This document shows positions 20,201 through 59,321 of a stretch of DNA of 64,000 nucleotides, in pieces (position 1 is the stretch's first letter; the number at the start of each line of letters is the position of its first letter). Position numbers and translations under genes: made by a program. A model generated the notes under the pieces. The model saw nothing but the letters and a program-made list of their open reading frames with translations, searched no databases and was not told where the DNA came from. Source of the DNA: Catajapyx aquilonaris (Eukaryota); NCBI GenBank assembly GCA_000934665.2, contig KZ537972.1, forward strand, positions 1 through 64,000, written 5' to 3'.

Positions 20201-23200
20201 GAGCGGATCAAGCATGATGTAACCTTTTAATTAGAATTTTTTCCCTGTCGGAATATGCTGACTCAGCGTGTGATTTTTACTTTTTCGGAAGCCTAATGAT
20301 CTGAACTGCACTTTCTGTATGTGAAAAGTCCAATATAACAATTTAGTTGATAAGCAGAAATTTAAATATACTGTTGGAGCCTCTCAGGCTCCGCCTACGT
20401 AGTTAAAGGTGTTTCACCCACCTATGTAGTTAAGGGTTAATTCTTCATGTCGTCATCTTAGGATATTTCATGCCACTTAACATATATCTCAAGGGATTAG
20501 CAGAGGGATTTGCACCAGTGTCCCGTTCATGTGTAAATCAATAATACAGGGTGATTCAATTGAGTTATTCTTTTCTGTTGTAAAAATTTTGGGCACTAAA
20601 CTTTTTATTTTTAAGCAGTTACTTTTGCATAGTACTTCAAAAGTTTTACAATCAAAGGTTTTTTGCTGACAATGTCAGGTAGTGTGGACCCATAATGTTT
20701 GATGGCAATTTTTTCAATGGGCCATTCTTGGAATTTCATTGCAACTTTGATTTAATTTGGTTGAATATTCACAGCCAATACTTTAGATAACCACTGAAAG
20801 TAACTGCAAAAGTACATGCTTGGAAATAAGCATCTTAATGCAGAAAATGATTAACTTCACTTTACTGGACAATTCTGTTGGATCACCCTGTATTTATTCC
20901 TCCAATTATACAAGGGCAAGTCAAAACAAATTGGGACTGATTTTGTATGTGATAAAAAGAATTAGTTCATGACTTTTCGTGAGTGGCATCGTGACCAGAA
21001 TGGCTTGAAGTATTAGATCACCAATTTTTGTTTGAGTATTCCGAAATCCCAAGCGACAGGGACACCGAAAGTAAGCCTAGGTTTGCATTCGCCTCCACTC
21101 TGCCAGGAGGTTGGCAGTGACGACCAACATTCATTGTTGGGGTTTTCCTTCCGTTTGAAGACAACAACGATGGAGCCATGCACCATGCTAAGAGAGGTGT
21201 ATGGTGAAGAAGTGTTCCACAGCATTCCGATGGTACAAGGCACTCAGCGAGTCAGTAGTAAGCTTTCAAAGACACAGGTCTGCAGACTCTCATCAGAATT
21301 CTGACATAGGCCCTCATTAACATCAACTGTGCGGTGATTGTTCAGGAAGAACGCCGTATATCTGTCGATGGCCTTGCCAGAATATGTAATATTTCCCATG
21401 GTAGTGCCCACGCAATTTTGCACTGACCATTTGCACGTATGACGCGTTTGCACCTGATGCAATGGGTCTTCATGTTGTTTACTCCATAGGAGAGGCAGAT
21501 GCGGGTGGAGGTTTGTGGAGAGTTTCAACGCCTTATGGCCTCACATGGTTACCAGTATCTGCTGTTCACAATCTTAGCATGTCGTACACCTCTGTGCCTG
21601 TTTTCTTCAAACGGAAGCAAAACCTCAATACTGAATATTGGCCCGCATCGCCAACCTCCTGGAAGAGTGGAGGCAAATATAAACCCAGACCTACTTCCGG
21701 TGTCACTGTCGCTTGGGATTGAGATTGAACAAAAATTGGTGATCTAATACTTCAATCCATTCTGGACACAATGTCACTCACAAAAAGTCATGCACTAACT
21801 CTCTGTATCACATAAAAAATCCGTCCCAATATGTTTTGACTCGCCCTCGTACATGCGCAGGAAACTAGATGATGATGCACGTCATAATATTACAGGCCCG
21901 CCGTGTGTCACCCCATGACACCATAATCCTCTACAACATTGCGCTGGTGCTTCAGCGCCTGGCCACTCATATCTTGAAAGATGAGAAGTCGACTTTAGAG
22001 ACAGTGCTGCAAGCTGTGCGGGAGCTTGGCCTCTCTCACCGCTACTTCCAGCACCTCTCTACGCATGGAGACCGGATGAAATATGATCTTGCACAGGCTG
22101 CAGCTGAGGCTAGGCATTGCCAGGACCTCTTATCTCAGGCACAGTATCACATAGCCAGAGCTAAGCAACTGGATGAGGCGGAGAAGGATCTCAGACAGAA
22201 GCAGGAGCAAGAGCGAGAAGCATTCAGGCTTAAGCAGGTGAGTGATTGTTGTGGTGGAGATGCATTTGAGGAGATGATATGGCGAGGGGAGAGGCGTTGG
22301 AAGAGTTTGGTGTACTCGGCAGGCGTCAGGAATGCCTAATTCCATGGAATTTCTTGCAAGAGTTTGGCAACTTCTAGTGTATGGGGAGTACTGGTTTCAA
22401 CCAGTTATAAGCAGTTCTAACAAGCTTAAGATAAACACAAACACTGCATTCCAGGACTTGGCAAAAGGCAAACAGGATAATAATCCCTGCAAGGGGTGGG
22501 GTGGATGGGGAGGGGGGCAGGCAGGGGGAGAGAGGAGGGGCAGGAGAGTGGGGGTAAGGAGGGAAGGGAACTAAGGACAAATGGGGTCAAACTTCAAACA
22601 GTGTTCAGCTGGAGGGAAGGCAGGATGGCACTGAGCAGCACAGGCTTGAGACTGGAGAAAAGGAAGACTTCTACTGAAGATTCCAAGTTACTTCTCGTGA
22701 TATGTGTCAGTATATTATCATAACATAGTCTGTTGGACTTGATGTGATTGCACCATCATTCTTCTGGGTGTTGCATGCATGCAGTTAGTTTGTAGGTACA
22801 ATTGCATGGGTGATCTTTAGCCAGAAAGCTTCCTTTGCCAGGTGTCACAGCTCATTCACAGAACTGTTAAGCATACCCAGGAACACAAGCTGGCCCACTG
22901 ACCAGGCTGGCCGCCACACAGGGTGACCAGGGCTGGTCAGGATCATGGACTGCAGCTAATGCATGCTTAATACAGGCTTTCTCGATCACCCCTTTCCCAA
23001 CTTTCTCGTACAAACTCCTTGAAGGGAGAAACAACACACTACCAATAAACTGAGGAAAGTCCTAGAGTCCGACCATGGGACGAGAGGGAACCTCTGGCTT
23101 TGCCACCCATCTGGGGGCATCTAGCTCTTTGGCTGTAGCATGACTATGTGCCTCATGGTAACAAGCAGTTACAATCAATTGCTTATTGACATTGTACATC

Positions 23201-26200
23201 AGTTACTAGAAGTTGTGAACCTCTTTATTTAGTGACGTCCTTATGTAGGTTTATGCCTGTGACACGGACAGCTGGTAAATGTTTTTAAAGGGAGATTTGG
23301 GAGTAAAAATCACACTAACTAAACAGCAAAGCTATAATTTTTCTATGTAACTGACCCCTCTCTTACACATGTTTGTGGTACTTTTACGTATTATTAATAT
23401 AATATTTTTAAAAACCAGTTGAATGCGGAAGTAATTTACACCATTGTGAAATTTTAAATGATGTCTTAGCAAGCACCAAAATAATGATGTGCAAAAAAAA
23501 AGTTGCGTGACCAAGCAGCCGATTTTTATGTTTAGCTATAAATTTTCCACAAATAATTTGAAAAACTAGGACTCCATTTGTATGCTAGAGCCACTGTTTT
23601 TGAGAACAACCAAGAAGCCCAATTTTCTGGGTTTTTTTTGGTCTGCTTGGAGGGAGGGAGGAGAAAGGGACAACCCTGACCCTTTTTTTATGGCCAGGGA
23701 GTGGCACAGTTGAGGGATTGAAAACTGACCCCTTCAGTTGGACCCATGAAATTGGCATGACCCTCTTGGAATGTTGAAATGTCAAATGCTGGAAAAATTT
23801 GACGCCCAATTTATGCTGGAATTCCGAATTGATTTTTGCCTGCAGGATATTTGTCTAGGAACCTTCAGTGTCCAACACAGACTAGTTTCACTGCAATCTT
23901 CTTGAGACTACTGTGTTGTGTCCCAGTTCTTGATCCTCTTCATTCACCCCATATGCCATAAAATCACCCCTGAAAGGAGAAAAAAGGTTGACCCTTTGGG
24001 AGGGGTGGCCAGGGTTTTGGACAAGCCCTCTTCTGGTTTATGATCCCTTGACCAGTGTCATAAGGTCATATAACTGTTTTTGGCCCCTAAAATTGGAAGG
24101 GAAGAGAGGGGGAGGGGGGAAGAAGGAAATAGGTGTGGTATTGCCATATCTACCCTAAGCCCCATGAATTGCTTGTTTTCTCCACATGACCAGAATACTT
24201 TTGACATGACAATCTGCTTCAGATGAGGTTTATTTTCCAAATATTTGCAAGTTTCACGGTTTAATCGTTTGTTCCCAAACAGGGGTCTGGGATGACCGAG
24301 TTGATATCTACCATTATTCTTAAAATTGTCGCATCTGCCCATTGTGGTATGGTCATGTTTTCCTTTGAGTTGCCTGGGCCAAGCATCCTTATTGCAATGA
24401 CCAGATGTTATGTTTTTGATAGGGTGGTGGATATGACCTTTTTTGTTCCTCGTCTCTTCTCTCTGACACCTGGTAGCATTCCCTCATGAGTTTCATTGTG
24501 CATAAAATAATACACATGCATCTACAAAAAATATATTTCCTGACGTCCAAGTCATCCATTACTTTTTTTTCTTTATTTTTGTATTTACCCCGTGATATAG
24601 CCAGCGGCTCTCTTAGAGGGGTGGTTGCACCATTTTTTGCCGAATTTTCCTTATTTACTTCAGACTCTGGTGCAGGGAAATTGGGCCAAGATAGGGATTT
24701 TTGGGGAGGGAACGTAGGTTCATGTGGGTTACCGACCGACAAATGGGTTGTGTGCTGTTCCCCAGGAGGTTAGGTTGCCAGACACCTCCTTGGTGCAGGT
24801 AGGGATTGAACCTGGGACCTTTCACTCAGCAAGCCGAGACATTACCATCTTGGCCACTGCCCCTCCGCATCATTCATTACTTACCACCTTAACATGGAAG
24901 GCAGGTTCATGTGTGTGGGGTATTGCAATACTGATTATAATTGAATTTGCTTAGGTTGAGGAGCAGAAGAAAAAGGAGGAAAAACTCAAGGTTCAGATGG
25001 AGGAAATGCTCCGGAAGCGAGAGGAGTTTAAGGAGAAGAAGAAGAATGCACTCATATTTGACGCCATGCCAAACGAGAAATCGGGTAAGAGAGGCAGGGG
25101 ACGAAGGAAGGAGGATGAATACATCAGTGATTCTGCAAGTGGAGCTGAGAATGCAGGTCCAGAAGCGTCAAGACCTAAGAAGAAGAGGAAGAAGGGTGGG
25201 TCAGGATCAGAAGAGGAGGGTAGGAGGAAAGGTCGCAAGGGTGGGGAGGAGAGAGGCAGGCCTAGGACCAAGGCTGGGAGGAGGGCTGGTGGGAGAGGTA
25301 AGAAGCTCAAAGAAGATGATGGACTTTCGGCCAAGCAAAGAAGTAGGATTGTGTCAAAGGCCACCATATCTACTAGCGAGTCGGATTCTGATGATGGTGA
25401 CAAAGCCAAGGGGGGCGGGTAAGTGTGATTTTCTTTAGCTACTAGCAGCATGTTATGCAAGGAATATAAAAATTTGATTTTACATAGGGAAAGCAGTGGA
25501 GCAGAAAATGTGACTCTGAAGAAGCGTCGTATTGCTTCTGATTCTGAGAGTGAAGGAAGGCGATCCAAATCATCCTCCCGCTCTCGTTCATCTGGATCAA
25601 AATCCAAATCAAGATCAAGATCTCGATCCAGGTCCAAGTCTGCGTCCAGGTCCAGGTCAAAGTCGAACTCCAGATCAGATTCTGGATCACGATCACGATC
25701 TAGGTCACGATCAAAGTCGAGGTCCAAGTCTGGTTCCAGATCAAAATCAGGATCAAAGTCTCGTTCTCCATCTGGCTCTCGATCTAAATCTGGTTCCAGA
25801 TCTGGATCTGGCTCCAGGTCCAGGTCCAGATCATCCTCAGCAGCGTCGAGGAAGAGTTCTAAATCAAGTTCAAGGTCTCGATCAGCATCACCTTCCAAAT
25901 CTCGATCCAAGTCAAGATCCAAGTCAAGATCCAAGTCAAGATCCAAGTCAAGATCCAAGTCAAGATCCAAGTCAAGATCCAAGTCAAGATCCAAGTCAAG
26001 ATCCAAATCTCGATCCAAGTCCAGATCCAAGTCCAGATCCAAATCTCGATCCAAATCCAGGTCCACATCGAGATCCAAGTCCAGATCTAAATCCAGGTCT
26101 GTATCCAGATCCAAGTCCAGATCTAAATCCAGGTCTGTATCCAGATCCAAATCAAGGTCCAAATCAAGATCCAAATCAAGATCCAAATCAAGGTCCAAAT

Positions 26201-27292
26201 CACGATCCAAATCCAGATCCAAATCCAGATCCAGATCCAGGTCTAAGTCACGGTCTGCATCCAGATCCAAATCGAGGTCTAAATCAAGATCCAAGTCAAG
26301 GTCTAAATCAAGATCCAAGTCGAGGTCTGCATCCAGATCCAAGTCAAGATCCAGATCCAGGTCTAAATCGAGATCCAAGTCGCGGTCTGCATCTAGATCC
26401 AAGTCAAGATCCAAGTCCAGGTCCAAATCAGGATCCCCACCAGCATCTAAGTCGAGATCTCATTCACATTCAAGATCTCGCTCCGTCTCAGAGTCAAGAT
26501 CACTCTCTGGCTCTCGTTCTGTGTCTAAATCCCGTTCTGCCAGTCCAGTTTTACCAGGTGCAAGACGGTCGAAATCTAGGTGAGTGGAATGTTCATTTTT
26601 ATTGCCCCACAATAAGATAGTCAGTTAACGTGACAACAGCTCCATAGAGTTCTGTTTTGATTTGTAACTAATGATGCCAGATAATTTTTTAAATCACATT
26701 TTTTCCCACTCTGTAGATCTCGTACTCGGTCAAGATCCATGTCTTCGCATAGCAGTCAGAGAGGTTCAGTAAAGTCTGGAGACTCGAGAAGCCGAAGATC
26801 TTCCAGTCGGAGCTCAGTCAGTGTCAGCTCTGGATCTGGTGGCCACAGGGAGTCCCGCTCTCCTTCTCGATCTCGATCACGAAGTGGCTCCCGCAGCAGG
26901 AGCCGATCCCCAGAGAGGACTCAACCTGCACCTGGACCAAGCGTCCCACACCCTCGCAGGTCCCGCTCTAGGACCAGGTCTCGAAGTGGGTCTGTGACAT
27001 CAAACAGGAGCCATTCACCTAATAAACATGGACCAGGGCCATTCAGGTCAGTACATAATCATGCATCAAGTAAATTTTGGACATGCATTTCAATGTGTCC
27101 ATTTAAATGTAATGAACTAATAATAATCTAGAATGGATGAGTATGGTGATACAGTTTGCTATTGTGGTAAAGAAATGTTCGATCAACATATTCTTAAAAA
27201 TCTCTTACAGGGATGCGTCTCCAAGAAGCAGAAAATCTAATTTGGGGAGTGATGACAGTGAAAGAGACAGTGATGAACAATCTTTGGACTAA
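10549..27292 (+). CDS. CTR9: RNA polymerase-associated protein CTR9 homolog (PAF1 complex TPR scaffold), ~1510 aa with expanded RS/SK C-terminus
   Basis: Exons 10549-10689, 10829-11068, 11587-11855, 12108-12531, 12672-13191, 14334-14515, 18582-18762, 19113-19261, 19538-19654, 21896-22237, 24955-25418, 25488-26579, 26717-27046 and 27211-27292 (TAA) total 4533 nt, all GT-AG with consistent phase. N-terminus [19 protein letters not shown] and TPR motifs such as [30 protein letters not shown] and [22 protein letters not shown] at 28510-28515. Confidence 0.95.
13759..14251. mobile_element. MITE with 24-bp TIRs (Harbinger-like) in CTR9 intron 5
   Basis: GAGGACGTTCCTAAAAGGACCGGT ... ACCGGTCCTATTAGGAACGTCCTC (1 mismatch), flanked by TTT/TTT. 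Internal ACCGG repeats. Confidence 0.8.
14831..15126 (-). mobile_element. Full-length tRNA-derived SINE with V-domain-like core and (GTT)n tail
   Basis: Minus-strand A/B-box head, central GTGGGTTTTCTCGGGGTTCTTCAGTTTCCTCCCAC, 3' CCTATCACGGGGTA and microsatellite tail. Imperfect TSD CAATCAGTTCTCTA (14817-14830) / CAATCAATTCTATA (15127-15140). Confidence 0.8.
15331..15767. mobile_element. Tc1/mariner-type MITE with long TIRs
   Basis: TA|CAGGGTGTGTCAAAACTCTACCATAAGCCAT ... ATGGCTTATGGTAGAGTTTTGATACACCCTG|TA, with a TA TSD. Confidence 0.85.
15957..16630. mobile_element. Kolobok-like non-autonomous DNA transposon
   Basis: TTAA|AGCAACATGCCAGT ... ACTGGCATGCTGCT|TTAC. AG..CT termini at a TTAA-type target. 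Confidence 0.6.
16635..17186. mobile_element. piggyBac-like MITE, copy 1
   Basis: CCCTTAACTATGTAGGTGG ... CCACCTACGTAGTTAAGGG|TTAA. Internal repeats of GGTGGAGCCTGAG(A/C)GGCTCC and a central hairpin at ~16840-16960. Same family as 19967-20436. Confidence 0.85.
17255..17624 (-). mobile_element. tRNA-derived SINE with (ATT)n tail
   Basis: Minus-strand head GGGGAGGCGGAGTGG...GGTTCGATCCC and (TAA)n tail at ~17253-17298. Imperfect TSD TGTGTAAATCATATA (17240-17254) / TGTGAAAAACATATA (17625-17639). Confidence 0.75.
19967..20436. mobile_element. piggyBac-like MITE, copy 2
   Basis: TTAA|CCCTTAACTACGTAGGTGG ... CCACCTATGTAGTTAAGGG|TTAA with a perfect TTAA TSD. Collinear with 16635-17186. Confidence 0.88.
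20547..20890. mobile_element. Tc1/mariner-type MITE
   Basis: TA|CAGGGTGATTCAA ... TTGGATCACCCTG|TA. Confidence 0.7.
20911..21849 (+). mobile_element. Internally deleted mariner element with very long (~260 bp) inverted termini and transposase remnants
   Basis: TA|CAAGGGCAAGTCAAAAC ... GTTTTGACTCGCCCTCG|TA. Internal fragments [10 protein letters not shown] (~21185) and [27 protein letters not shown] (~21340-21420) resemble the two mariner HTH regions and are broken by stops and frameshifts. Confidence 0.85.
22820..22890 (-). mobile_element. Possible RNase H remnant of a non-LTR retrotransposon
   Basis: The minus strand gives VPGYA, then a frameshift, then NEL*HLAKEA, resembling the RNase H motif WVPGH-x-GNE-x-AD-x-LAKEA. 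Highly degenerate. Confidence 0.3.
24565..24869 (-). mobile_element. tRNA-derived SINE with A-rich tail
   Basis: Minus-strand head GCAGTGGCCAAGATGG...GGTTCAATCCC and 3' CTATATCACGGGGTA plus A-rich tail. TSD TCATCCATTACTT (24552-24564) / TCATTCATTACTT (24870-24882). Confidence 0.78.
25560..26579 (+). repeat. Coding 12-nt minisatellite (Ser-Lys-Ser-Arg) in CTR9 exon 12
   Basis: Eight perfect GATCCAAGTCAA units at 25904-25999 embedded in ~1 kb of degenerate SRSK codons. Confidence 0.9.
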
Positions 27293-28945
27293 TCATTTTT
27301 TGATATACAAGACTTTCTAATGATGAAAATTAAACGATGAGCCCTTGTGCTTTGCACTTTGCTGTGCAACAGGAAATGGACTGTTACACATACATGATAA
27401 AGTGAGTCAATTCAGAAAGCTTGCATTATTTCCAGTATGTTGTTACATTTCTCATCACCAGACCTTCACGTGGTACTTTGTTGTGTAAGAAAATGGGGGA
27501 AAAGTCGCATTTTTTGGTTGCATTTTGACCAAGAAGGTACTTTTTCTCATTGTGAATTGTGAAGGATTTCTGACGTTTGTGTAATATTTTATCCTAGAGT
27601 AGGCTGCATCATTCATGTGTGATCAGCACACTCCCAGCTTGTGGCATGCACTGTTTAAATTTAAAAAATCAGAACTGATGGTCTGCAATTTCAGATGCCA
27701 CCCATTGCATCTTCATGAGTAAGGCATTGATTGGATGAAGTATAAATTAGTATACATATGGATTAGGAGGAGGCAGTGGACTGCTGTGGTAACATACATG
27801 CCCATGGATGGAAGGGAAGGGTCCAGAGTTCAATCCCTCCATTTCATCTCATGCAGAATATATCGTGTCTAGCGTCATCTCAGAGGTCAGCACTATCAAA
27901 GTTGCTATCATTATTATTACAGTGGGACCTCTGCATGTGTAGGTTCCTCATCTGCTGCTTGAAAACATTTGCGAGGGAAGAAGCCAGAAATTTCCTAAAG
28001 GCGAAACTTGATTTTGCTGGGCATCCAGAACTACAATACAGCACCTATTTGCATATTGTAAGTTCTGGCAATGCCATATTCATCTGAAAATGCTGAAAAG
28101 GTACCTGATGAATACAGGTGTAACAGATGATTTGTATTGAAAGAATTGCACCCACTTGGCATTAAATGCACAGCCAAGAGGCCTTGTGAAATCCGAATAC
28201 ACCCTCTTTTTCAGAGCATTTTTATATTGAACTCTGTTAGCTGTATTTCAAATTACTGACTTCCGTTTTTTATGAACCTACGGACACCTTACTCATTGAT
28301 GGGTGGCTTAGATTGCAGGTCATCACTTCTTGATTTTTAACAAAGCATATGTCAGGAAGCTGAGATTATACTGATCACACACAGAATGATGCATCTTACA
28401 ACATTATCGCCTACTAAAGCAAGGACTTATTATTTCCTACCAGTGGTAGTACTCACACATGTAAGTGGGTCATTCATTATTTGGTTGTACTTGTAGAATC
28501 GTAGGTATCAATAAAGGAATTGTGAAGGAAAATAATACAAATTTGTACCCGTACTGTAGTTACTTGTAGTCTGATCTAAATAGTTTATGTTACCATGGGT
28601 GTTTTGTGTGGTTCCCAGAGGCTCCCTTCGAGGTAAACACCATCATATTAATCATTGCACGACCATGCTGCCTGAGTGATTCCGGTGCAAGAACTGGTGG
28701 CTGTAATTAGCAACAGACTTGCATGTTGCACAGGCAGTGGATCAGACCCTTTTCTTCTGTCGTAAGTTATCAGCTGTTACCCTGTAATAGAAATACTTTT
28801 CCCTGCCTCTTTACTCCATGGACACTGGACAGTACTTTTCCGTCTCCCTAGCCACCACTCTAGTTGTCAAGTCCTGTACAAAAATTATGAGGTGATCAAA
28901 ATGACATGTATGAGGTACGACATAACATTCAAGAGTTACTGCTCA

Positions 28946-29665
28946 GGAGGCGCAGTAGCAAAAATGCTGTAGGACGCATTCCGTAGGGTAATTTTTTGTG
29001 GCAAAACACGTCCTTAATCCGGGAAAACAATGTAGGTTCCCTGCGCAAAGGTTTGGCCTTGACAATGGTACCATACTCGATTCAATTTAATTAAAATTGT
29101 GGACACACAGGTGCAGACACATGTCCGATTTCGTCGTGATTTATTCACCATGTTATTCAAATGGACTTTTCGGAAATTCGTTTTCCTCTCACTTCAAAAC
29201 AACACCACCACCATCACGACATTTCCCTATAAAGGGGTAGTCAGTGATGATGGGAACCACAAGCTAACCCAAAATATAAACTAAATCCTCTCACTTCAAT
29301 TAGCCATAAAGGTCATTTCGAGGGCGGAAAAGACGAAGTAGCTCCAAATCGCCTAATATTTTTTGGTGGTGTTTCTGTGTCGATCGAACCATTTTTGAGG
29401 CCATATGGCTGTAGAAGCGTATACATGTCGAATCCTTTTGTACTGCATACATAAACATGTTTGTTGGCGTCGTCAATTGTTGTGGGAGAGACTCAAAGCT
29501 ACAGAGCGAGTCTATAAGGTTCGAACATACAGCGGGAAGTGGGGGAAGGCAATGGGGCGGGGATTGTTTAAGGAGTGACAACAATTGCTTTCTATTGTTG
29601 TCCTACAACTTTGACAGCATGCTGCAGAGCCATCTCGTTAACTGTATTTTTGCTACTGCGCCCCC
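28946..29665. mobile_element. Non-autonomous DNA transposon (Kolobok-like)
   Basis: GGAGGCGCAGTAGCAAAAAT ... ATTTTTGCTACTGCGCCCCC|TTAA terminal inverted repeats. Confidence 0.65.
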
Positions 29666-30070
29666 TTAAAAGAAGGCTGTCAACGTAAATCTCGAGTGCA
29701 GGAATGAAGGGAAGAAAATTAAACGATGCATGCAACAGGAATTAAGGAACATGAAACATTAGCTAGCAACTGCACAGTACAATCACACTGATGGAATTAA
29801 ATTATTCTACAGTAATCACTACAGCATTTATTTATTAAAGGCCAAGAAAGTGGTGAGGTTCTAATGGCACATCACAAGACATGAAAACTTGACTCGGATT
29901 GTGGTCCCATAGGCTTTTATTCTTTACACTGTATCACAACTGGTCACTACACCACTTGTTTTAACGTTGTAGTTATTATCTGGTTACGAAATGTGGGTAG
30001 TTTGGATTGACATTTCATTTACTTGTATCACATGTCATTGCAACCATTCTTTTCCATTATTATGCAGTTA

Positions 30071-31668
30071 TTACCTGGTTACAAAATGTGGGTAATTTGG
30101 ATGCCACCAGTCAAGCACTTTGAGGTTAAGTACAGGGTCCAACGTAACTTGGGTCTGGTGAGTGGTACATCTGGTGCGCAGGTATGGTGGTCCAAATCCC
30201 AGCTTGAGGCAATGGTGTCTCATGCCCTGGCTGACTCCCATTGTCACACTGGCGAGAGTCAAACCCAGGACTATCGGAACTGAGGCAAAGTCATGCCCAA
30301 TCACTTGCAACACTTTGCACCCCTGCTCCGGATTTGAGTTTACATCACCGAGCATTTCAAGCAGGTCGGGAGGATGAGGATGGTTGGAGGAGGATCTGGA
30401 GTACTTTTCCAAGGAGGACGGAAGGGGATGGTGGAGCTTGAAAAAGAAGTGCCACTGGTCCTTCACTCTCTGAAAATTGGGAAAATGATTTAATTTGGGC
30501 CACTGACTAAGAATGACCATTGTGTGCATAAAATTATAACTTACCTGATGCCACTGCATAACGCAGAAGGATCTGACCAGCAAGTATGGCTCGGCCTCAA
30601 AGCTGGTAAGAGGCTTCAGCCTCTCCATGAAGGGAGGGTAGCAGTAGAAGAGGGCTCGGACCACATGCGGCCTGAGACCACAAGGCCTCTCCATGCATTC
30701 CGGTTGAAGGCGCTCAGGTATTCCCAGCACCTTCTTGTAATACCGCTTATACATGCCATACCAGAACTTGGCCGAGTTGACCACATACAGCGTGCTCTGG
30801 CATATCAGAGCGAATCTGCACACGTCTTCCGGTCGCACGTATTCAGATAGGAGAAACCAAATATCCAGGGGGTATGCTCTGCCATCAACTTCGCCATCAG
30901 ATGGATCAGGTTTTTCAGTTGCGTGGCGACTTCTGGAGCGAGGCTTGGGATCTGCGTTTAAGAAGGGTTGCTTGTGAGATGCTTAAGATACACCACACTG
31001 ACGCTCTTACCAGCTCTTACAAGGGCCAAATCTTCTTCTTGTTCATTGCTACCATCTCGGGGCACAAAGTCAAACTCGTCCAGTTCTTTCTCGTACCAAT
31101 CTCGTGAGTCACCATCACTACACAGCTGTCTCACTGCAATAAAATTATTATGTAAGCACTGCTGTCAGGCTTTGCAGAATCTTCTGAATATGGGCTCACC
31201 CTCTCGTTCAATGGCGTTGCTGGCAGCCTTTTTTAGTCGCCCCTTCCCAGTTGGGCTGTTTGCAAAGTCATCCAGTGTAAGATCTGTGTGAAAAATCCAG
31301 GTTATATTTTTGACATTAATAATGTGCTAAATTGGTGTATCCAAGCATTGCCTAATTAACATTTTTTTGTGCACTTTTCGTTTTTCCTCCGTGGACATGA
31401 CAGCAGTATTGCTTATTGCATCATATGATTCAATGCCAACTAACATGTTGCTACATGGATATGCATCAATGTAACACCTTGCCACAACAATGATCTTCAA
31501 GTTAGTTACAGCCAAGCAAGTAAAAGCCACGTCCTTGGCAAGATGGACTCTCCCAACCAGTGCAGTGGGGGAAGGTCACCACCAAATAAACCCACCTCCA
31601 ATCACATTCTCAGCCACCGACTTGCTCTGACCCGACCTCCTCCTGCTCTTCCTATTTCCCCTCGTCAT
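30071..31668 (-). CDS. TMEM183: Transmembrane protein 183 (TMEM183, F-box-like motif), ~361 aa
   Basis: Minus-strand exons 31668-31596, 31283-31200, 31133-31011, 30951-30545 and 30469-30071 total 1086 nt in frame. Motifs GDLTLDDFANS, YPLDIWFLLSEYVRPEDVCRFALIC, PERLQPECMER and C-terminal LDPVLNLKVLDWWHPNYP. Minus-strand AATAAA at 29831-29836. Confidence 0.88.
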
Positions 31669-31759
31669 ATCCCACCCGGTCCGATCCAGCACCGCTCATG
31701 ACATGGGCTTTAAAACCACCAAAAATCTCCTGAACCATCAGCCCTCTCTACCACTGACG

Positions 31760-32050
31760 GGCGCCATCTTCTCCTCCGCCATGTTGTGTCCATGTTGTTG
31801 CACATATACGTAAAAATTCAACTGTCATAAAATGTAATTTTTATGGCATGCCGTATGTTTAATTTTAATTAATGTGTCGATATTTTTACGTTTAAATATG
31901 TGTGAATTAGGCGGGCATATTGGGTCCAGCTGGCTGTCACGTGACCAAATGTGGAAGGGGGGGGGGGGTGCTGTGACGTCACATCAAAATACGTCACTGT
32001 TCTAAAATGGTGCCCCGAATTCGGGGCATCGGGATTGAAGAGTTTGGCAG
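31760..32050. promoter_or_regulatory. Bidirectional promoter copy 1 (TMEM183 leftward; CTR9-derived gene rightward)
   Basis: YY1-like GCGCCATCTT/CCGCCAT, palindromic E-box GTCACGTGAC (31936-31945), CRE TGACGTCA (31974-31981) and AAAATGG, followed by a strong donor CAG|GTGAGT at 32050/32051. Homologous to 37871-37981. Confidence 0.65.
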
Positions 32051-32310
32051 GTGAGTGATTCCAGGCTGATTTGTGCGGGTAGAGACGCGTTTGAAGGAAG
32101 AATATGACTAAGGGAAATGTGCAGGAAGAGTTTGCGGTCAATTTGACATATTACATGACCAGCAAGTACTGAAAATGGACGTGTTTTTACTGTGACATAT
32201 TGGTGGATGGGGGCACAGGAGTTGAGAGCCTAACCAGCTTGTGAGGTATTGCAATGCTGATCATTGGATTTGTTTAGGTTGAGGAGCAGTATAATAGCGA
32301 GGGAGAGGAC

Positions 32311-34065
32311 ATGGCCCAGATGCAGGTTATCCTGCGGAAGCGAGAGGAGTTTAAGGAGGAGGAGAATGCACAGGATGATGATTTCAGCAGCGACACTACA
32401 AGTGGCTCAGATGAGAGTTCGGATGCAGTGGCAGATTCAGGACTAAATAACAAGAGGAAGAAGGGTGCGTCAGGATCGGAGGAGAGTGGGTAAGTTGGAT
32501 ATGTGGAAGCTACTAATGTACGGAAAATGAGAGAACGATCAGACGTCGCATCAAGGTTTCCATGGAAATACCGTCACAGAACAATATGAGTAAACACACC
32601 GAAGCAGGTTGGCATAGTGTATAAGGCGTCCGACTGCTAATCAGGAGGTCCTGGGTTCAAATCCCGGGGCTGGCAACTCTGACCATGGTTTTCTGTGGTT
32701 TCGTACGGTCCTTCCAGGGAAATTCTGGAGTTGCTTCCGTAATTAATAGGCCACAGCCGCTTCCTTCCGTCCCTATCCTTTCCCAAAGAGCACAGTAAAA
32801 ACGAAAGCAAAGAGTTCCAGGCAAAACAAACTTCCCCCCTACAGAGCCGATGGCTGATAACGGGGTATGAATTATTTATAATTATTATATGAGTAAACCG
32901 TAGCAACAAAAAGCAACAATGGAAGAAATGATGACGTCAGATCGTTCTCTCGTTTTCCGCGTGCGGCATGTTATTCAAGGAATATAACGATTTTGTTTCA
33001 CTTAGGGATAGCAGCGATGCAGAACATGTGACTCAGAAGAGGCCTCGTATTGCTTCTGATTCGGAGAGTGACCGATCCGACTTCTCCTCCCACTTTAATG
33101 CATCTGGGTCGGAATCCAAATCGAGATCAAGATCTCGTTCCAGGTCCTGGTCAGAGTCGGGCTCCACATTCTATTCTGAATCACGGTCCAGATCTAGGTC
33201 ACGAACAAAACCTAGGCCAAAGTCTGGCTCCAGATCAAAATCAGGATCAAAGTCTCACTTTACGTCTTGCACCCAATCTAAACCTGATTCGAGGTCTGGT
33301 TCCAGGTCCAGGTCTTCCTCAGCAGAACCCAGGATGATATTTAAATCAAGTCCAAGGTCCCGATCAACATCACCTTATGAATCTCGCTCCATGTACAGAG
33401 CTGCGTCAAGATTTTATTATAGATCCAGACGCATGTCCAAGTCACCATCCCCACTAACACTAGCAGGAATGTTGAGACATTCTCCGCCGAGATCTCGCTC
33501 TGTCTCTCAGCCAAGATCCCTGCGTTCGGGAAGCAGCCGGAGAAGTTCAATAAAACCTGGGGACTATCCAAGTCCAATATCTTCCAGTCGGAGCTCAGTC
33601 AGTGTCAGCTCTGGATCTGGTGAATTCAGGTGGTCACGGTCTCCCTCGCGGTCTCGATCACGAAGTGGCTCCCGCAGCAGGAGCCGATCCCCAGAGAGGA
33701 CTCAGCCTGCACCTGAACTGAATGACTATTATCCTCCCGTACCCAGGCCCCGCTCTAGGACCAGGTCTCGAAGTGGGTCTTTGTCATCAAACAGGAGCTT
33801 TTCACCTTTTCAATATGGAGAAGGGCCATTCAGGTCAGTACATAATCATGTATCATGTAAATTTTGGAAATGCATTTCAGTATGCCCATTTAAATGCAAT
33901 AATAATTTAGAATGCATGGTGATGCAATTTCCCATTGTGTTAAGGAGGTGCTATATCAACATATTCTTAAATATCTTTGCCAGAGATGGGTCTCCAATAA
34001 GCAGAAAATATCTTTTGGGAAGTGACGACAGTGGAAGAGACAGCGACGAACAGTCGTTGGACTAA
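32311..34065 (+). CDS. Candidate CTR9-derived RS-rich protein (~362 aa) from duplicated CTR9 terminal exons; may be a pseudogene
   Basis: Exons 32311-32489 (acceptor at 32277), 33006-33833 and 33984-34065 (TAA) total 1089 nt with no internal stop. Homologous to CTR9 exons 11-14 ([44 protein letters not shown]). 3' UTR homology extends to ~36140 with AATAAA at 36094-36099. Confidence 0.6.
32521..32959. mobile_element. MITE inserted in the intron of the CTR9 duplicate and interrupted by a SINE
   Basis: TIRs CGGAAAATGAGAGAACGATCAGACGTC / GACGTCAGATCGTTCTCTCGTTTTCCG. Absent from the homologous 69-nt CTR9 intron 25419-25487. Confidence 0.8.
32596..32886 (+). mobile_element. Full-length tRNA-derived SINE nested in the MITE
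   Basis: A box TGGCATAGTG, B box GGTTCAAATCCC, core TAGGCCACAGCCGCTTCCTTCC, 3' GATAACGGGGTA and (ATT) tail. Perfect 12-bp TSD ATATGAGTAAAC (32584-32595 / 32887-32898). Confidence 0.88.
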
Positions 34066-34726
34066 TCATTTTTCGGTATATTGGGACCTACTAATGGTGA
34101 AAAATAAATGATTAGCCCTTGTGTGTTGCACTTGCTGTGCAACATGAAATGGATTGTTAACACATACACGATGAAGCATGTATATTCAGAAGACTTACGT
34201 GTTATTTCCAGTATATTGTTACATGTCTCATCACCAGACTTCATCTGGGACTTGGTTGTGTATGAAAATATGGAAAAAGCCAGTTTTTGGTTGTATTTTG
34301 ACCATGAAGGTACATTTTTGCGTAGTGATTTGTGAAGGATTTCTGATGTTCATTCAATGTTGTATCGTATAGTAGGCTACCTCATTTAATATATGATCAG
34401 TACAGTCTCAGATTGTGGCATGCAGTGTTTCAGTTAGAAATCAGGACTGATGGCCTGCAATTTCAGATGCCACCCATTGCGTCTTCATGAGTAAAGACTT
34501 AATGGATGAAGCAAAAATAAGTGGACACATGAAATAGGGAGTCGGAGTGGCTTTGCGGTAACGAACATGGTCAAGAAAGGAAGGGTCCAGAGTTCGATCC
34601 TTCCCTTTCATATCGTGCAGAGTTTTGCTGTCTTTTTCTTTGTCTGACGTGGGATTTCTTTGAGACTAACCCGCCTGGGACAATAGCACCAAATGATTCA
34701 AACTAACTTTGCACCTGCACATTGTA

Positions 34727-34886
34727 CAGTGTTGGACATTAATAGTGTCATACTGCTAGTGACGTTTTTCGAAGTGGCAGAAGAAGGCATCTTGCTCGCA
34801 CGGCTTTTTCTCCATTGCTTCAATTCGTTTTTCTGCCGCTTCGGAAAATGTCGCTAGCAGTACGACGCGATTAATGTCCAAAACTG
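34727..34886. mobile_element. Foldback MITE (Tc1/pogo-like)
   Basis: TA|CAGTGTTGGACATTAAT ... ATTAATGTCCAAAACTG|TA, with ~60-bp inverted arms. Confidence 0.75.
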
Positions 34887-35599
34887 TACCACCCCTTCCG
34901 ATTCAGCTCTAAAAATCAGGACGTTTCCAAAAGCAAATATTTAATTTGCTCTGTGCCAAACACTACAATACAATGTAACAATTTACGAAGCACTTGTATA
35001 TTATTAGGTATGTAATCAGGAGATCGTTTAAACTTTAAAGCATATGGGTGTATGGGCTATATGGATAACCATTACCATTATATGTAAGGGACTTGAGCAT
35101 CCACAGATTTTTGGACATTTATGTTTGTTTAATTGGGAAGTAACCAAAGCAATTATGGCTATCTGGCTATTAGAGCATACATAAATGGGGCAGATGGAGA
35201 GAGAAAGTAAGAGAAAAAACATAACAGGGAAGACTGTGGCATCTCTCTTGGTCTCTTCAAAAGCCTGTCCAGCTTGGCAGACCTTGCCAGTAGACTAGGC
35301 TACCTCTGACATAGCTCTTGGGGTCATGGGAGAAACACAAGTGCCACCCATAACAGGAAGGTGGAGATACATAAGGGAGAACAGGACATTTGTGAAGTTT
35401 GACAATTTTTTGAGGGGGAACAAGAGTAAGTGACTACTGATGAAAGTGCTTGGGAGGCAGTGGCATAAAATCCATCTGAAGATGCTGCTATGTTGCATCA
35501 ATAGTGAAATACTATTGGTTTAGGAGAAAATTCTTAAATGGAAAGCATTGCACTGGGCAATAAATGCGTAGCCAAGAGAGCACAAGTGTGAAGTCCTAA

Positions 35600-35782
35600 G
35601 ACCCTCCACAAACGAGGGGATTCGGGAGGGATAAGTTGCCCATGAATCCACTCGGAAAAGCATACAACGCATGTGCCAGGAGCATGTCCATATTTCTTAC
35701 ATGCTTCAACCTGAGGAAATCTGAACACTCAGGCAGGGGCCGGCAACTTTTCCCTCTCGCATCCCCTCGTTTGCGGCGGGCC
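35600..35782. mobile_element. PIF/Harbinger-type MITE
   Basis: TAA|GACCCTCCACAAACGAGGGGATTCGGGAGGGA ... TCCCTCTCGCATCCCCTCGTTTGCGGCGGGCC|TAA, with a TAA TSD. Confidence 0.78.
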
Positions 35783-37046
35783 TAATGTTCTCTATTTTGC
35801 AGAGCCCCTTAGAGTGTATAACTGACATCTACATACTAATTTTTCTACACGTATTGGCACTTGACTGGTGGTTGCAATGACTGGTGGCTGAGATTGGAGG
35901 TCATCAGTTCATGATATTTAAAAATGCATGTGTCAGAAAGCTGAGATTATACTGATCACACATTGAATGATGCCACTTACTACCATTTCACCTGCTAAAG
36001 TGAGGGCTTAATATTATTTCTTACCAATAGTAATACTCATACATGTATGTGGGTTATTCATTATTCAGCTGTACTTGTAGAATCATAGGTGTCAATAAAG
36101 TATTTGTGAAGAAAAAAAATTATAATACAAATTTGTCCCATTCTTTTTAGTCATGTATACAGAATAGATGGACTTAAAAATGCAGGGGTCTTGCACTACT
36201 GCCATCCTTTCAAAAAGTGTAGTCCCCTGACGTGGTAGTGCTAAGGCTGTATTGCCAAAGAGCACATCTCAATCTGATTACAGAAGTTCTGTTGCACTTA
36301 ATGCCATTGTGTTTGTAGATTCTTTCCAGTTCTGCACCTGAAGGGAAGCCCCAATTAATCCAGTTAGCCAGTGTGTTGTCAAGTTATTGTACGTAAGTAC
36401 TGACAACAGAGGACACAGTTACACAAGTAGCAATTTTATTGGGGTTGTAAACCCTGCACCTACAGTTATTATAGTCACTCTGAATAACAGCTGTGGAACA
36501 TAGATCCTTACCACCTTTCAGTCTGCAGTGTCAACCAGTCACAAGCGTACTGGATGTTCTCCATCACTTTCCACTCCAAGGACAGTCCCTTATGACAGAT
36601 GGACACGGCCTTTCCTTAACCTGCTTCCAGACGCTGAGAAGTTCCAGCACGTTGCCTGATTTCTGAGGGGGTGCCTTACCCGTGCTTGTGCAGTAGTTCA
36701 AAATGTGTTGAAACGACAATTCTAAAATTTATTTCTTGGTGGCCATATTTGTATTATGGAGCAGAGCATTCTTGCAATTTCTGTGGCTTGTGGTACCTAA
36801 AATGTCTCTGCCCCAATTTACCTTATGATCATGGAGTGAAAATATAACTTCTTCAGAAAGGAATTGGCTAAAGAATCTATATTATTCATTTTCACCTTTT
36901 AGCCCTTAAAGTGTAAATTACATCGTAAAATGGGGCTCATTTTATGAAAATAATTTTTCAAGGTAAAAATTTTGCCCATTTTCAACACTATCGCAAAATT
37001 CACAAAAATTCCAATTAATTCCGTGATTTCCAGTTTCAATGTAATA

Positions 37047-37349
37047 CAGTAGAACCCTGATTATTATCCGACTGTCCCACTCTGGCAATAAAGCTGTTTT
37101 TTCATGAAATAATGTAATGTTCTATGCATTTGTTCGTTGTGTCTTAGTTTTTGTAAATAGTACAGTAGAGTGTGTGTAAGAGAAAAATACTTCACTGTTT
37201 CGTATAAAACCATAATATTGTATGTTTGCGCTGTTTTGTTTTTTGTGTTTTATGAAAGTTTTTTTTTACTCCTCTGATTATTATCCGACCTTTTCGGTTA
37301 TCCGACGATGGCCCAGTCCCATGCGTGACGGATAATCGGGGTTCTCCTG
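37047..37349. mobile_element. pogo/Tigger-type MITE
   Basis: TA|CAGTAGAACCCTGATTATTATCCG ... CGGATAATCGGGGTTCTCCTG|TA, with subterminal TTATCCGA repeats. Confidence 0.78.
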
Positions 37350-37405
37350 TATCTGAAGAACCGCATGCTGCCAAAAGAAACTGCCCAACACTCTTGAAAT
37401 CACTA

Positions 37406-37580
37406 CACTGCAAACCGCAGCATCACTAGTGAGTCGCTAATGGAACATCAATTTTTTATACTCTTGTGATACTCCTGTGATGCTTTTTTGTTGCTAAAAA
37501 GCATCACATGATAATTAAAAATTAATGTTACCTGAGAGATTCATCAGTGATGCTCTATTAATGTTTTACTGTTTACAGTG
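37406..37580. mobile_element. Small MITE with CACTG termini
   Basis: CACTGCAAAC ... GTTTACAGTG, plus internal inverted AGCATCAC/GTGATGCT pairs. Confidence 0.5.
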
Positions 37581-37689
37581 CACAAAAAACCTAACATATG
37601 GATATTTTTATATTGTTATTATAAGTAAAATAAATTTTGTGGGCGAGTGTTATTGCTGTTTTTAGCATACCCTTCAGTTGTGCTTTTCA

Positions 37690-38310
37690 GAGGTTCGAAG
37701 ATGGCGCGCTTATAAAAGAGCGGAATGAAATTATGACGTCATGTCGTCTCTATTTGACATCCTGTAATGTTTTAAAAATTAAATACAATTAATTACAATA
37801 CCCTGTTGGCAGAACTGGTACATTACAGCAATTAATTTCTTTACTTCAACTTTTTTTTTTCAAGTGATAGTCCGCCATTTTGTGTCCAGGCCGGTTCGAA
37901 GTCACGTGACCTACCAGGGAGTGTGCCATGACGTCACATCAAATACGTCACTGTTCCAAAATGGTGTCCCGAAGTTGGGGCGAATGGGGCGTGTGTTTTT
38001 AGGCGGCGGCCCCCTCCCTCGCCTCCCCTCCCGTCCCTCTTCGACCCCCACCGCCCCCTATACCTTCCATCCCGCCCGCCCCATCCGCCGCCTCCCCTAC
38101 CCCCCCTCCACGGCACCCCCCTCCCTCGGTTCCATAGTTGCCGAAAAGTGGTTTTTCAGTGATGGTGCAGGGCCTGGGGACCGGCCCCGGGGTCCTATCT
38201 CGGGCGCCCCCCCCGCTCGCGGCCCGGTTCGAACGCCACGCCTAACCAATAAGGAGAAGGGACGATTCTACATAGACAGGCAGACAGAGACAGACAGACA
38301 GACAGCAACT
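37690..38310 (+). promoter_or_regulatory. Liprin-alpha promoter/5' region (promoter copy 2)
   Basis: CpG/GC-rich patch with AAGATGGCG, CCGCCATTTT, GTCACGTGAC (37901-37910), TGACGTCA (37734-37741 and 37929-37936) and CCAAT. It lies upstream of the acceptor at 38730 that opens the liprin-alpha ATG exon. Confidence 0.6.
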
Positions 38311-38863: not shown

Positions 38864-39133
38864 ATGTGGAACATGATGTGCGACGTGATGCCGACCATCT
38901 CGGAGGATAGTATATCCCAGCGCAGCTCCCAGTTCGGCGGCGGGGGTGGCGGAGGGGCAGGGGAGGACGCCAATTTTGAACAGCTGATGGTGTCCATGTT
39001 GGACGAACGGGATAAGCTGATGGACAGCCTCAGGGAGACCCAGGAGAGACTGCAGGACTCTGAGGCCAAGCTCGGGGAGGTGGAGAAGGAGAGGGACTCG
39101 CTCCAGAGGCAGCTCACTGCCAACCTGCCACAG
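38864..39133 (+). CDS. Liprin-alpha: Liprin-alpha (PPFIA family), first coding exon; gene continues beyond the window
   Basis: MWNMMCDVMPTISEDSISQRSSQ...EDANFEQLMVSMLDERDKLMDSLRETQERL is the characteristic liprin-alpha N-terminus. Donor CAG|GTGAAG at 39133/39134. No further liprin exon was recognised up to 64000. Confidence 0.93.
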
Positions 39134-41194
39134 GTGAAGAGACATGTACCTGCTAGATGTGGTGACCTGGTAGTATATGAAGACAGGTGCCTTCAGTCAA
39201 GTTCAACGTCACTTGGTCAGGGTGACGGATTGCCAATTTAATCAGTACCGTAGTGTTGGATCACATGTGATATTTTATAATTCAAGGGTATTTAATGGAT
39301 GGCAGGATATGTTTCATAAACTGACAGTCTTGGACAATAATAATTATTTTAATTATTGATGTAATACCATTTTAAAATGTGATACATTGACCTGGCATAT
39401 TAATGAGCTGCGTGTATCATGTGGACTCAATGGAAGAGTGCGTCACTGCGTTTACTGTAAAGCTTGGTAGTAATCACATTAGTATAATCATGTTACTCTG
39501 GCCAAATTACAATCTACTTTTGTTAAAATCATGAGTATTACTATCACTTCCATTACTTGTTGTGCATCAAACAGAATTTGACATAGTGTTATCTTCGTTT
39601 GTCCAACAGAAAATCCCTCTAAAGGTCACTGACCCCAATGGGTCATTTAAAAATATTTGAAAATAAAGCTGTTCACCAGATATTTAATGTCACTGCTTTC
39701 CTAAATGCAGTTAAGTTGGAATAGTATGCAAGAATTATGACTACCATGAAATCATAATTATTAACTTGGTTTGAAAAGTTCGTTGAATACTTTGCTAGCA
39801 TAAATATTGGATAGATGTATTACAAAATAATTGAGATGATTTTGAATTGAAGTGAAATTGAAAATTGTTGCAATCTGTTTGCTAGAGCACATGCGGCCAT
39901 GTGAATAGCACGTGCCGCATGGTGTCTAGTTTGGCATTACAGAAGTGCTTTCAAGTAGCGACTAATGTTGGGAAGTACTGCATGATTAAAATTAGACGTA
40001 ATTTTACTTGAAATAGACTGGATCTAGTGTGCATCCAATTGAGTGAGGTCAGTGACCCTGTCACATTTTGGATCTTCCTAGGGAGAATTGACTGTCAAGT
40101 TTGGGGAACTTGCCTTTGATAATGTATGAGAACATTCACCTAATTTTTCTGATAAGAATTGGATCATTGCAGGTCACATGGCACAATAAACTGGATCCAT
40201 TTCAGAAGAACGAGTTGGAATTCAAAGATTAGATGGCAATCTCATGTAATGCCGCAGGAATGTAGCCTTGCAGCTCCAACACTGACAAGAATTTGATGTA
40301 GTGCAAAATATGAAATTATTGTTTTTCTGGCATTTATTATTGACGAGGTCTAAGGACTTTTGCATTCGAAAGCTTAAAGTGTTTAAAGTAGCACTTCCTT
40401 TCAAAGGCACCTGTTTTCTAGTATGAAGTATTTTACGGAGTGAAGCTACATGTGGTTGTGGATGTTGTGAACATTTGGCTGAAATATTAAGATACTCTAT
40501 GATAATAAATTGCTGTGTGTTTGGGAGATTGACATTAATACAATGACAGTGGCTGTGTCCTTTAGTGTGCTAATTTTTCATCCTCGAGTTGTGCCCATGG
40601 GGCATTACGTACAGTCACATTGAATTTGTCAATGGAATTGACCCGCTTACTGTAATAATGTGCATGGTTGTAGCTTAAAGTTGCAGGTAATATTTGTGTT
40701 ACATTCTGGGACAACTGCACTAATTGCCAATTTAAAAGCAATGCGGCAGAAAAAAATGTTAAAATAGCAATGTTGCAGTTTTTACATTTATAGCATGTGA
40801 TTGATCAATTTTTGTGACTTAGCACAGTGGGGCCAAGTTATACCTGGTTATAAGAGCAGCAGGTGAACTAGTAATTTATGCCATTTGGTCCCACCTTTCC
40901 CATTACATCTATTTGCTTATGAAATGGTGTAAACATACTTGTGAATATAGCTGTTTGATTATTATGCATTACGCTACACCAATATAAATAGCAGTGATGA
41001 AATGGCTCATGGCAATTCAGAATGGATCCAGTAATGAGACATAAGACAATGCGATATGAATCGCAAGTTAAAATGAAGCCTGTCATTTAACAATATATTG
41101 CAAAGAACAAATTTTGAAAGTGTACTGTTTGTAATTTTGGAATGTAATCACATAACTTAAAATGAGTGTTTATGCCTCTGTGGGAATATTGTGT

Positions 41195-59131: not shown

Positions 59132-59321
59132 NNNNNNNNNNNNNNNNNNNNNNNNNNNNNNNNNNNNNNNNNNNNNNNNNNNNNNNNNNNNNNNNNNNNN
59201 NNNNNNNNNNNNNNNNNNNNNNNNNNNNNNNNNNNNNNNNNNNNNNNNNNNNNNNNNNNNNNNNNNNNNNNNNNNNNNNNNNNNNNNNNNNNNNNNNNNN
59301 NNNNNNNNNNNNNNNNNNNNN
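59132..59321. other. Assembly gap (190 N) flanked by poly-G
   Basis: Run of N bounded by G homopolymers on both sides; a single N also lies in a G run at 58145. Confidence 0.98.

Follow-up and report, generated by a model that had tools for sequence, protein, structure and literature searches.

Sdic and jingwei are classic cases of chimeric genes. In Drosophila, such genes are formed by partial tandem duplications that extend across gene boundaries, as described by Rogers, Shao & Thornton (2017; PMC5460883), and this mechanism of origin is already known. Here we analysed a 64,000-nucleotide stretch of animal nuclear DNA (the window; Catajapyx aquilonaris, assembly GCA_000934665.2, contig KZ537972.1, positions 1-64,000 of the forward strand), in which a diverged duplicate of the 3′ portion of CTR9 directly follows a duplicated promoter core, whose other copy precedes a liprin-alpha gene. 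On the observed duplication homologies, junction, splice sites, reading frame, and indel and stop statistics, it is rather probable, although by no means assured, that this duplicate constitutes a chimeric, translated gene whose frame is under selection.

CTR9 is the scaffold protein of the PAF1 complex. In vertebrates its C-terminal disordered regions are reported to be necessary and sufficient for entry into condensates formed by the intrinsically disordered region (IDR) of MED1, and this function is kept despite low positional identity (PMC12518536, PMC13289920). The survey PMC13289920, citing Lyons et al. 2023, names the charge blocks of the Ctr9 tail as an instance in which poorly conserved sequence is nevertheless functional. 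A CTR9 paralogue, Ctr9t (CG9899), is known in Drosophila; according to bioRxiv 10.1101/2024.04.23.590698, it is a testis-enriched protein of ~100 kDa, which keeps its tetratricopeptide repeat (TPR) motifs and associates with paralogues of other subunits of the complex. A full-text literature search on CTR9 duplicates revealed, among the matches listed, only Ctr9t and a planthopper saliva proteome, and no tail-only CTR9 paralogue.

The duplicate (~32036-36150) was detected by blastn, with positions 31000-37500 queried against the window. It matches CTR9, located 7 kb upstream on the same (plus) strand, in five blocks with 72-81% identity: 32240-32366 with 24914-25043 (78.5%), 32372-32492 with 25109-25222 (72.7%), 32963-33450 with 25445-25968 (73.7%), 33506-34621 with 26725-27857 (79.5% across 1148 columns) and 35875-36139 with 28294-28549 (81.1%). 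These blocks bear out the proposal, made in an earlier sequence-only reading of this DNA by a model, that CTR9 exons had been duplicated. The parental segment (22226-28560, plus strand) comprises the end of exon 10, intron 10, exons 11 to 14 (24955-25418, 25488-26579, 26717-27046 and 27211-27292) and the 3′ untranslated region (UTR). The C-terminal peptide, the stop codon, the 3′ UTR and its AATAAA signal (36094 in the copy, 28510 in the parent) are all retained, in agreement with the same reading, and the aligned sequences remain homologous for ~45 nt beyond AATAAA. A proximal poly(A) signal lies 40 nt past the stop codon in both genes (AATAAA at 34103 in the copy, ATTAAA at 27329 in the parent). 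A retrocopy (processed pseudogene) is ruled out by the presence of three introns with homologous ends; the sole missing intron, that between parental exons 12 and 13, is gone together with flanking exon sequence.

The predicted gene is read on the plus strand and begins with a putative non-coding first exon (approximately 31990-32050), which contains an out-of-frame ATG (32007) and a TGA in the main frame (32036). This is followed by the first intron (32051-32277), a coding exon derived from CTR9 exon 11 (32278-32489; 212 nt vs 464 nt in the parent), the second intron (32490-33005), a large coding exon in which CTR9 exons 12 and 13 are fused (33006-33833), the third intron (33834-33983; 150 nt) and the last exon (33984-36140), composed of 79 coding nt, the stop codon TAA (34063-65) and the 3′ UTR, with poly(A) signals at 34103, 35559 and 36094. 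All six splice sites are canonical and strong (the slash marks the boundary): CAG/GTGAGT at 32050/51, TTTAG/G at 32277/78, TGG/GTAAGT at 32489/90, CTTAG/G at 33005/06, CAG/GTCAGT at 33833/34 and GCCAG/A at 33983/84. When spliced, the three coding exons form a frame of 362 aa, which extends from the ATG at 32311 (context GACATGG) to the TAA. The parental codon aligned with this ATG is AAG; a further in-frame ATG of the copy, at 32320, has a parental ATG opposite it. The exon derived from exon 11 has undergone two in-frame deletions (57 nt and 198 nt), by which conserved CTR9 motifs were removed, and the parental 137-nt intron between exons 12 and 13 was lost with 99 nt of coding sequence (236 nt in total). 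The third intron is in frame and stop-free in the copy, whereas the corresponding frame of the parental intron contains 5 stops; a transcript that retained this intron, exactly 150 nt long, would encode 50 more residues, still in frame.

An element bounded by inverted ends of 27 nt (32521-47 and 32933-59; 92.6% identity) occupies 32521-32959 of the second intron. It encloses a tRNA-like stretch (32604-32675) resembling a short interspersed nuclear element (SINE), which scored 29.5 bits with the Rfam tRNA model (gathering score 29); ARAGORN called no tRNA at this position. Within the last exon, positions 34622-35874 are largely unalignable to the parent and contain inverted repeats. Two palindromic or inverted-repeat elements of the 3′ UTR (34724-34889, 168 nt, 72.6%; 35599-35783, with 42-nt arms, 85.7%) have no parental counterpart and are probably further miniature transposons. 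Several elements of the gene model proposed in the sequence-only reading thus held up against the alignments and the translation: the uninterrupted spliced frame of 362 aa, the newly created start codon, the large deletions including the loss of the exon 12/13 intron, the insertion of a miniature inverted-repeat transposable element with a SINE confined to an intron, and the upstream out-of-frame ATG at 32007.

One component of that model requires revision. The strong donor at 32050 (GTGAGT), described there as following the promoter copy, is present; together with the intron behind it, it is homologous to the donor of CTR9 exon 10 and the start of intron 10, and is not promoter-derived. The donor with its flank (GCAG/GTGAGTGATT) is identical at 14 of 14 positions to parental positions 22234-22247, within flanks of ~70% identity (a match with a chance of 0.044 at 80% identity). 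In a more sensitive search, positions 32071-32134 matched 22246-22309 (E 1.3e-5), and the 5′ ~90 nt and last ~38 nt of the copy's first intron are homologous to the two ends of parental intron 10. By these homologies, the donor and first intron of the copy are evidently the exon-10 donor and intron 10 of CTR9, the latter reduced from 2717 bp to 227 bp. The junction lies at ~32035-32040: promoter-copy homology stops at ~32034, CTR9 exon-10/donor homology begins at ~32039, and the ~12 nt to the right of the junction resemble the end of CTR9 exon 10.

Since the donor and first intron are CTR9's own, one tandem duplication accounts for the promoter copy, the donor and the exons together. The whole locus would have been created by duplication of a block of ~9.8 kb, which would have started ~12 nt before the end of CTR9 exon 10 (~22226), run through the rest of CTR9 and an adjacent minus-strand TMEM183-like gene, and ended ~27 nt beyond the AAAATGG motif of the promoter core placed between the TMEM183-like gene and liprin-alpha. 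In the first block, CTR9 would remain complete and be followed by the TMEM183-like gene and promoter copy 1. The exon-10 donor, immediately after copy 1, would mark the beginning of the second block, and copy 2, before liprin-alpha, its end. This model requires that a second TMEM183-like copy was lost later. In the 1.7-kb stretch where it would be expected (36150-37870) we found no detectable homology to 28560-31900 or to the parental block, and only a local inverted repeat (37419-37554). Subsequent changes would have been the shrinkage of intron 10, the shortening of the tail through in-frame deletions and the insertion of transposons into an intron and the 3′ UTR only. A transcript initiated at copy 1 in the direction of liprin-alpha would be spliced from the exon-10 donor, across the shrunken intron 10, to the exon-11 copy, and would carry the 362-aa frame to the retained stop codon and poly(A) signals.

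The two promoter cores are direct repeats on the plus strand: copy 1 at 31905-32035 and copy 2 at 37870-37990, which precedes the first liprin-alpha coding exon by ~900 bp. Positions 31962-32027 and 37917-37981 are 86.4% identical across 66 nt (blastn), and weaker similarity covers ~31905-32034. Both copies contain an E-box (31938/37903), TGACGTCA (31974/37929) and AAAATGG (32004/37958); ACGTCA is found at 31991 in copy 1. The match and the common motifs confirm that the copy is homologous to the liprin-alpha promoter. The further claim, that this is a captured promoter driving the CTR9-derived frame, stands only in part. Copy 1 does lie directly upstream of the frame; it also lies 120-250 bp upstream of the start codon of the minus-strand TMEM183-like gene (ATG at 31782), and by this position it appears to be that gene's own promoter as well, so its presence alone is no proof that it drives the frame. 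Since the plus-strand side of copy 1 corresponds to the liprin-facing side of copy 2, plus-strand initiation at copy 1 is plausible, and copy 1 may be a promoter in use. Two short motifs recur in this region: AAGATGGCG, the start-codon context of the TMEM183-like ATG (31762-31782, minus strand), is present on the plus strand at 37698, ~200 bp upstream of copy 2, and a motif resembling GCCAT-N-TTGTGTCCA occurs three times (~31778, 31912 and 37871).

The preservation of the frame is the principal argument for a gene. Divergence and gaps were counted in segment-wise alignments, because a global MAFFT alignment of the 3.6-3.9-kb segments was distorted by insertions. The neutral yardstick was provided by introns and UTR, whose divergence (K) is 0.145-0.288 (0.18-0.21 in three long segments), i.e. 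~0.10 per lineage. When 304 aligned parental codons were mutated in a simulation with the observed transition bias (4000 runs per rate), the frame remained stop-free in 2.5% of runs at d = 0.10, 1.0% at 0.12 and 0.3% at 0.15. In the large exon, the coding frame contains no stop codon, while 7 and 16 stops are found in the other sense frames and 12, 11 and 22 in the antisense frames.

Gap lengths display the same tendency. The coding alignments contain 10 gaps, two of which (1 nt and 8 nt), placed at the arbitrary right-hand ends of segments, were set aside. All 8 internal gaps are multiples of three (3, 57, 3, 3, 6, 18, 12 and 6 nt), and some of them lie outside the repeat array, whereas this holds for only 4 of the 17 intron and UTR gaps, and for none of the 11 within the first 551 nt of the UTR (Fisher p = 0.00046 for coding vs non-coding gaps; 0.0069 when the two edge gaps are included as frameshifts). 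The bias towards frame-preserving indels, to which the sequence-only reading had pointed as a check, is therefore present. From the 13 non-coding gaps that are not multiples of three (in 1052 nt), 6.7 frameshifting indels would be expected on the copy's lineage in 1090 nt; the probability of none is 0.0012, and rises to 0.11 when a threefold lower rate is assumed for coding sequence. Three large deletions can be placed on the copy's lineage, by outgroups or by the loss of the intron: one of 57 nt, one of 198 nt and one of 236 nt that includes 99 coding nt. None of them disrupts the frame (chance 0.037). Transposons were found in the copy's intron and 3′ UTR only. Taken together, the stop simulation, the gap lengths and the stops of the other frames make an open frame unlikely by chance.

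A number of observations weigh against a selected, translated gene. The locus was picked by the earlier reader for its open frame, which inflates the nominal significance of the above tests. The retention of promoter copy 1 is, judging from its position, explained by the need of the TMEM183-like gene for a promoter. Transcription starting upstream of the ATG at 32007 would open, in a strong context, an overlapping upstream open reading frame (ORF) of 70 codons, ending at 32444. Coding segments (K 0.18-0.27) have diverged no less than non-coding ones. Over 315 codons aligned pairwise between copy and parent, dN is 0.197 and dS 0.300 (dN/dS 0.66 by NG86, 0.67 by LWL85 and 1.22 by YN00), and the differences are distributed as 52/59/70 over the three codon positions. 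By these counts, the pattern is what would be seen if the copy evolved neutrally and the parent were under constraint: with the parent constrained, the pairwise values imply that the copy's own dN/dS is near 1. The dN/dS comparison, which the sequence-only reading had likewise put forward, thus indicates near-neutral change at the residue level (pairwise 0.66, NG86), yet the frame is stop-free and its indels are in frame.

Other features of the coding sequence point in the same direction. Changes in the exon-11 part were polarised with 13 named arthropod CTR9 proteins out of the 120 of the protein search; these outgroups are distant, and the C-terminal 70 aa have no useful alignment to them. 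In 71 aligned columns, 12 changes were assigned to the copy and 6 to the parent (25 identical, 28 unresolved; binomial p = 0.24), several of the latter in poorly aligned low-complexity columns. Two motifs that the parent has in common with the 13 arthropod CTR9 tails are absent from the copy, having been lost through the 57-nt and 198-nt deletions. Aromatic residues account for 6.6% of the copy and 0.6% of the parent product, as random decay of serine codons would give. Moreover, copy and parent have in common two identical islands of 53 nt (33652-33704) and 44 nt (33579-33622), synonymous sites included, within surroundings of ~80% identity, although only ~0.002 and 0.012 such islands, respectively, are expected per 1100 nt; these may be gene-conversion patches or reflect joint constraint at the nucleotide level. 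Finally, no protein resembling the copy was found in a protein collection in which close relatives of the species are absent.

The alternative that these observations favour is a decaying partial duplicate, i.e. a pseudogene, the frame of which has stayed open by luck or the function of which was lost too recently for a disabling mutation to appear. It would account for residue change near the neutral rate (with equal coding and non-coding divergence and even codon positions), for the lost tail motifs, and for the degeneration of the arginine/serine (RS) array with its gain of aromatic residues. RS repeats slip by 6 or 12 nt, which preserves the frame without selection, conversion patches at the two islands could have reset part of the frame, and the choice of the locus for its open frame adds to the case. 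However, the joint neutral expectation is small: the probability of no stop is 0.3-2.5% and that of no frameshifting indel 0.001-0.11. The in-frame gaps extend beyond the repeat array in which slippage would act, the splice sites are all intact, with a perfectly conserved donor, and 7 to 22 stops have gathered in the other frames. Divergence of ~20% in every segment also speaks against wholesale recent conversion. We consider a pseudogene unlikely, albeit the most serious competitor of a translated gene.

It is also conceivable, with a clearly smaller probability, that the frame is selected but belongs to no stand-alone gene: the copied exons may serve as alternative 3′ exons of CTR9 (exon 10 spliced to 32278), or be transcribed from another start site, and give a full-length CTR9 with a different tail. 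No stop interrupts the frame in the 11 codons between the copied exon-11 acceptor and the ATG, the acceptor region and the first 12 exon bases are well conserved, and exon 10 has the required phase-0 end. Nevertheless, 11 open codons are weak evidence, and such a transcript must bypass the parental terminal exons and poly(A) signals and traverse ~3.7 kb more, through an oppositely oriented gene; in addition, the copy has kept its own donor and mini-intron behind the promoter copy, though neither would be needed. Very improbable is a by-product transcript of a bidirectional TMEM183-like promoter, with at most a regulatory or RNA-level role and with an open frame that matters only because a premature stop would trigger nonsense-mediated decay: copy 1, at its short distance from the TMEM183-like start codon, plausibly fires both ways, the residue-level pattern is neutral-like and the last intron is in frame and stop-free, but nothing indicates a specific RNA function, and decay avoidance, a weak and indirect force, is unlikely to have kept a frame of 362 codons free of stops and of frameshifting indels. 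An in-frame fusion with liprin-alpha was rejected, since splicing from 33833 to the first liprin-alpha coding exon, read by hand, leads to a stop within 8 codons.

The predicted 362-aa protein lacks the TPR array of CTR9, as every TPR exon lies upstream of the exon-10 donor with which the copy begins. Its N-terminal part (59 aa) has a net charge of -7, vs +17 for parental exon 11 (154 aa). Two basic patches resembling nuclear localization signals (NLS; KRKK and KRPR), a degenerate RS region and an acidic C-terminal end complete the protein, which contains 62 RS/SR dipeptides (S 29%, R 15%), interrupted by other residues. The RS/KS array is shortened by ~280 codons relative to the parent. In the parent, this array is also open in a second sense frame (25520-26620, plus strand, 366 aa) and in antisense (24993-26459, minus strand, 488 aa), because of its repeat structure alone, and an open frame in arrays of this kind is therefore no evidence of coding. 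Pfam assigned no family to either large coding exon of the copy, hence no RNA-recognition motif and no TPR match. Searches against protein sets in which the species and its close relatives are absent gave no match at E <= 0.001 for the large-exon translation (vs proteins of 151-482 aa) and no match for the 376-aa stop-to-stop frame (vs proteins of 30-205 aa). Among 1.84 billion representatives there was a single match, with a 1787-aa low-complexity protein (E 1.6e-5), which we take as compositional. The best matches of CTR9 itself in the protein collection are insect proteins, with 79-80% identity across the 172-aa TPR exon; a best match of only 80% indicates that the species and its close relatives are absent from it, and the blank searches are thus silent on novelty and on expression.

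The predicted protein should be disordered. The combination of a preserved frame with freely changing residues fits a translated disordered protein whose exact sequence matters less than its length, composition and charge pattern. We therefore return to the translated chimeric gene as the preferred interpretation, in which selection on translation would have maintained the frame while single residues were hardly constrained, as in disordered proteins that depend on composition and charge. The work on vertebrate CTR9 tails supports, by analogy, such a composition-over-sequence reading. The product would presumably be nuclear and, like CTR9 tails, might enter environments of the speckle or transcription-condensate type; the roles proposed in the sequence-only reading, in splicing, in condensates or in competition with the CTR9 tail, are conceivable. 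A more specific scenario, which we regard as improbable, is that the disordered tail of a core transcription elongation factor has alone become a gene, kept for its composition and charge pattern and not for its precise sequence. Its N-terminal part would have turned from basic to acidic and it would have gained aromatic residues, and it would enter the condensates or speckles of CTR9 tails, tuning or competing with the partitioning of the PAF1 complex, under the expression programme of the TMEM183/liprin-alpha promoter.

If the gene is expressed, its birth can be read stepwise, from tandem duplication through the joining of a promoter to a pre-existing donor and the shrinkage of an intron to in-frame trimming, and its product is solely an intrinsically disordered region. 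A kept frame with near-neutral residues is what current work on CTR9/SPT6 tails predicts for charge-pattern regions, so that the gene, if expressed, would be a useful natural test of charge-pattern ideas. If it is not expressed, the locus is an ordinary partial duplicate, which warns that repeat-rich frames can long stay open.

Four plus-strand genes were placed in the window by stop-to-stop frames, Pfam and protein searches. The first encodes an RNB-domain exonuclease (~2700-4800), and the second (~6800-8600) gave a sub-threshold Pfam match to a linear-amide-hydrolase family (E 0.0019; 18.3 bits vs a cut-off of 20.4). These are followed by the parental CTR9 (~10500 to the stop codon at 27290-92) and by liprin-alpha, whose first coding exon (~38876-39135, with the ATG region at ~38876) was named from its peptide and gave nothing in Pfam. 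Between parent and copy lies the minus-strand TMEM183-like gene (30071-31782), with exon boundaries predicted from the sequence: a probable first exon that carries the ATG at 31782, another probable exon at ~31195-31285 and the large ORF at 30071-30982. The 303-aa frame 30071-30982 was linked to TMEM183 and TMEM183_C clusters (protein atlas score 0.98), a lead that makes this a candidate identity. TMEM183A and a liprin-alpha gene are presumably neighbours in the human genome too. A 40-nt direct repeat, its units 90% identical (29968-30007 and 30063-30102), spans the 3′ end of the TMEM183-like frame. Several minus-strand frames, 120-187 aa in length and with many acidic residues and serines, precede the exonuclease gene (921-2459); the one searched, 921-1484, matched no Pfam family. 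An assembly gap of 191 N is located at ~59130-59320.

Comparison with known systems shows partial resemblances in each case. SR-related proteins are nuclear proteins which have an RS domain only, with a long disordered S/R-rich region and NLS-like patches, but no RNA-recognition motif. The copy likewise has a long RS-rich, predicted disordered region, NLS-like patches and no RNA-recognition motif, a motif that belongs to classical SR proteins; however, its RS dipeptides are less dense and are broken by aromatic and hydrophobic residues, and protein look-ups and Pfam revealed no homology to any SR-related family. In these terms it would be, at best, a degenerate RS-domain protein without an RNA-recognition motif. 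With CTR9 the copy has in common its origin from exons 11-14, the alternating acidic and basic patches, the NLS-like patches, the RS-rich stretch and the C-terminal peptide, whereas the absence of the TPR array leaves it without a known route into the PAF1 complex, and conserved tail motifs have been deleted. Ctr9t, a lineage-specific CTR9 duplicate with its own expression and role, is similar in its origin as a duplicate, but keeps the TPRs, while the copy is tail-only.

The chimeric genes of Drosophila resemble the copy in architecture: in both, the 5′ regulatory end of one gene is joined to 3′ exons of another, and the parents remain intact beside the chimera. They differ in several respects, as the captured 5′ part of the copy consists only of a promoter core and a few tens of bases, its coding part is purely a disordered tail, and it is old (~20% divergence) and not segregating. 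The Drosophila cases rest on RNA-seq, whereas the transcript of the copy is a predicted one. The copy has several of the features by which such chimeric genes are recognised: a nearby paralogous segment in the same orientation, a junction between a regulatory region and an internal exon, and a frame kept beyond neutral expectation.

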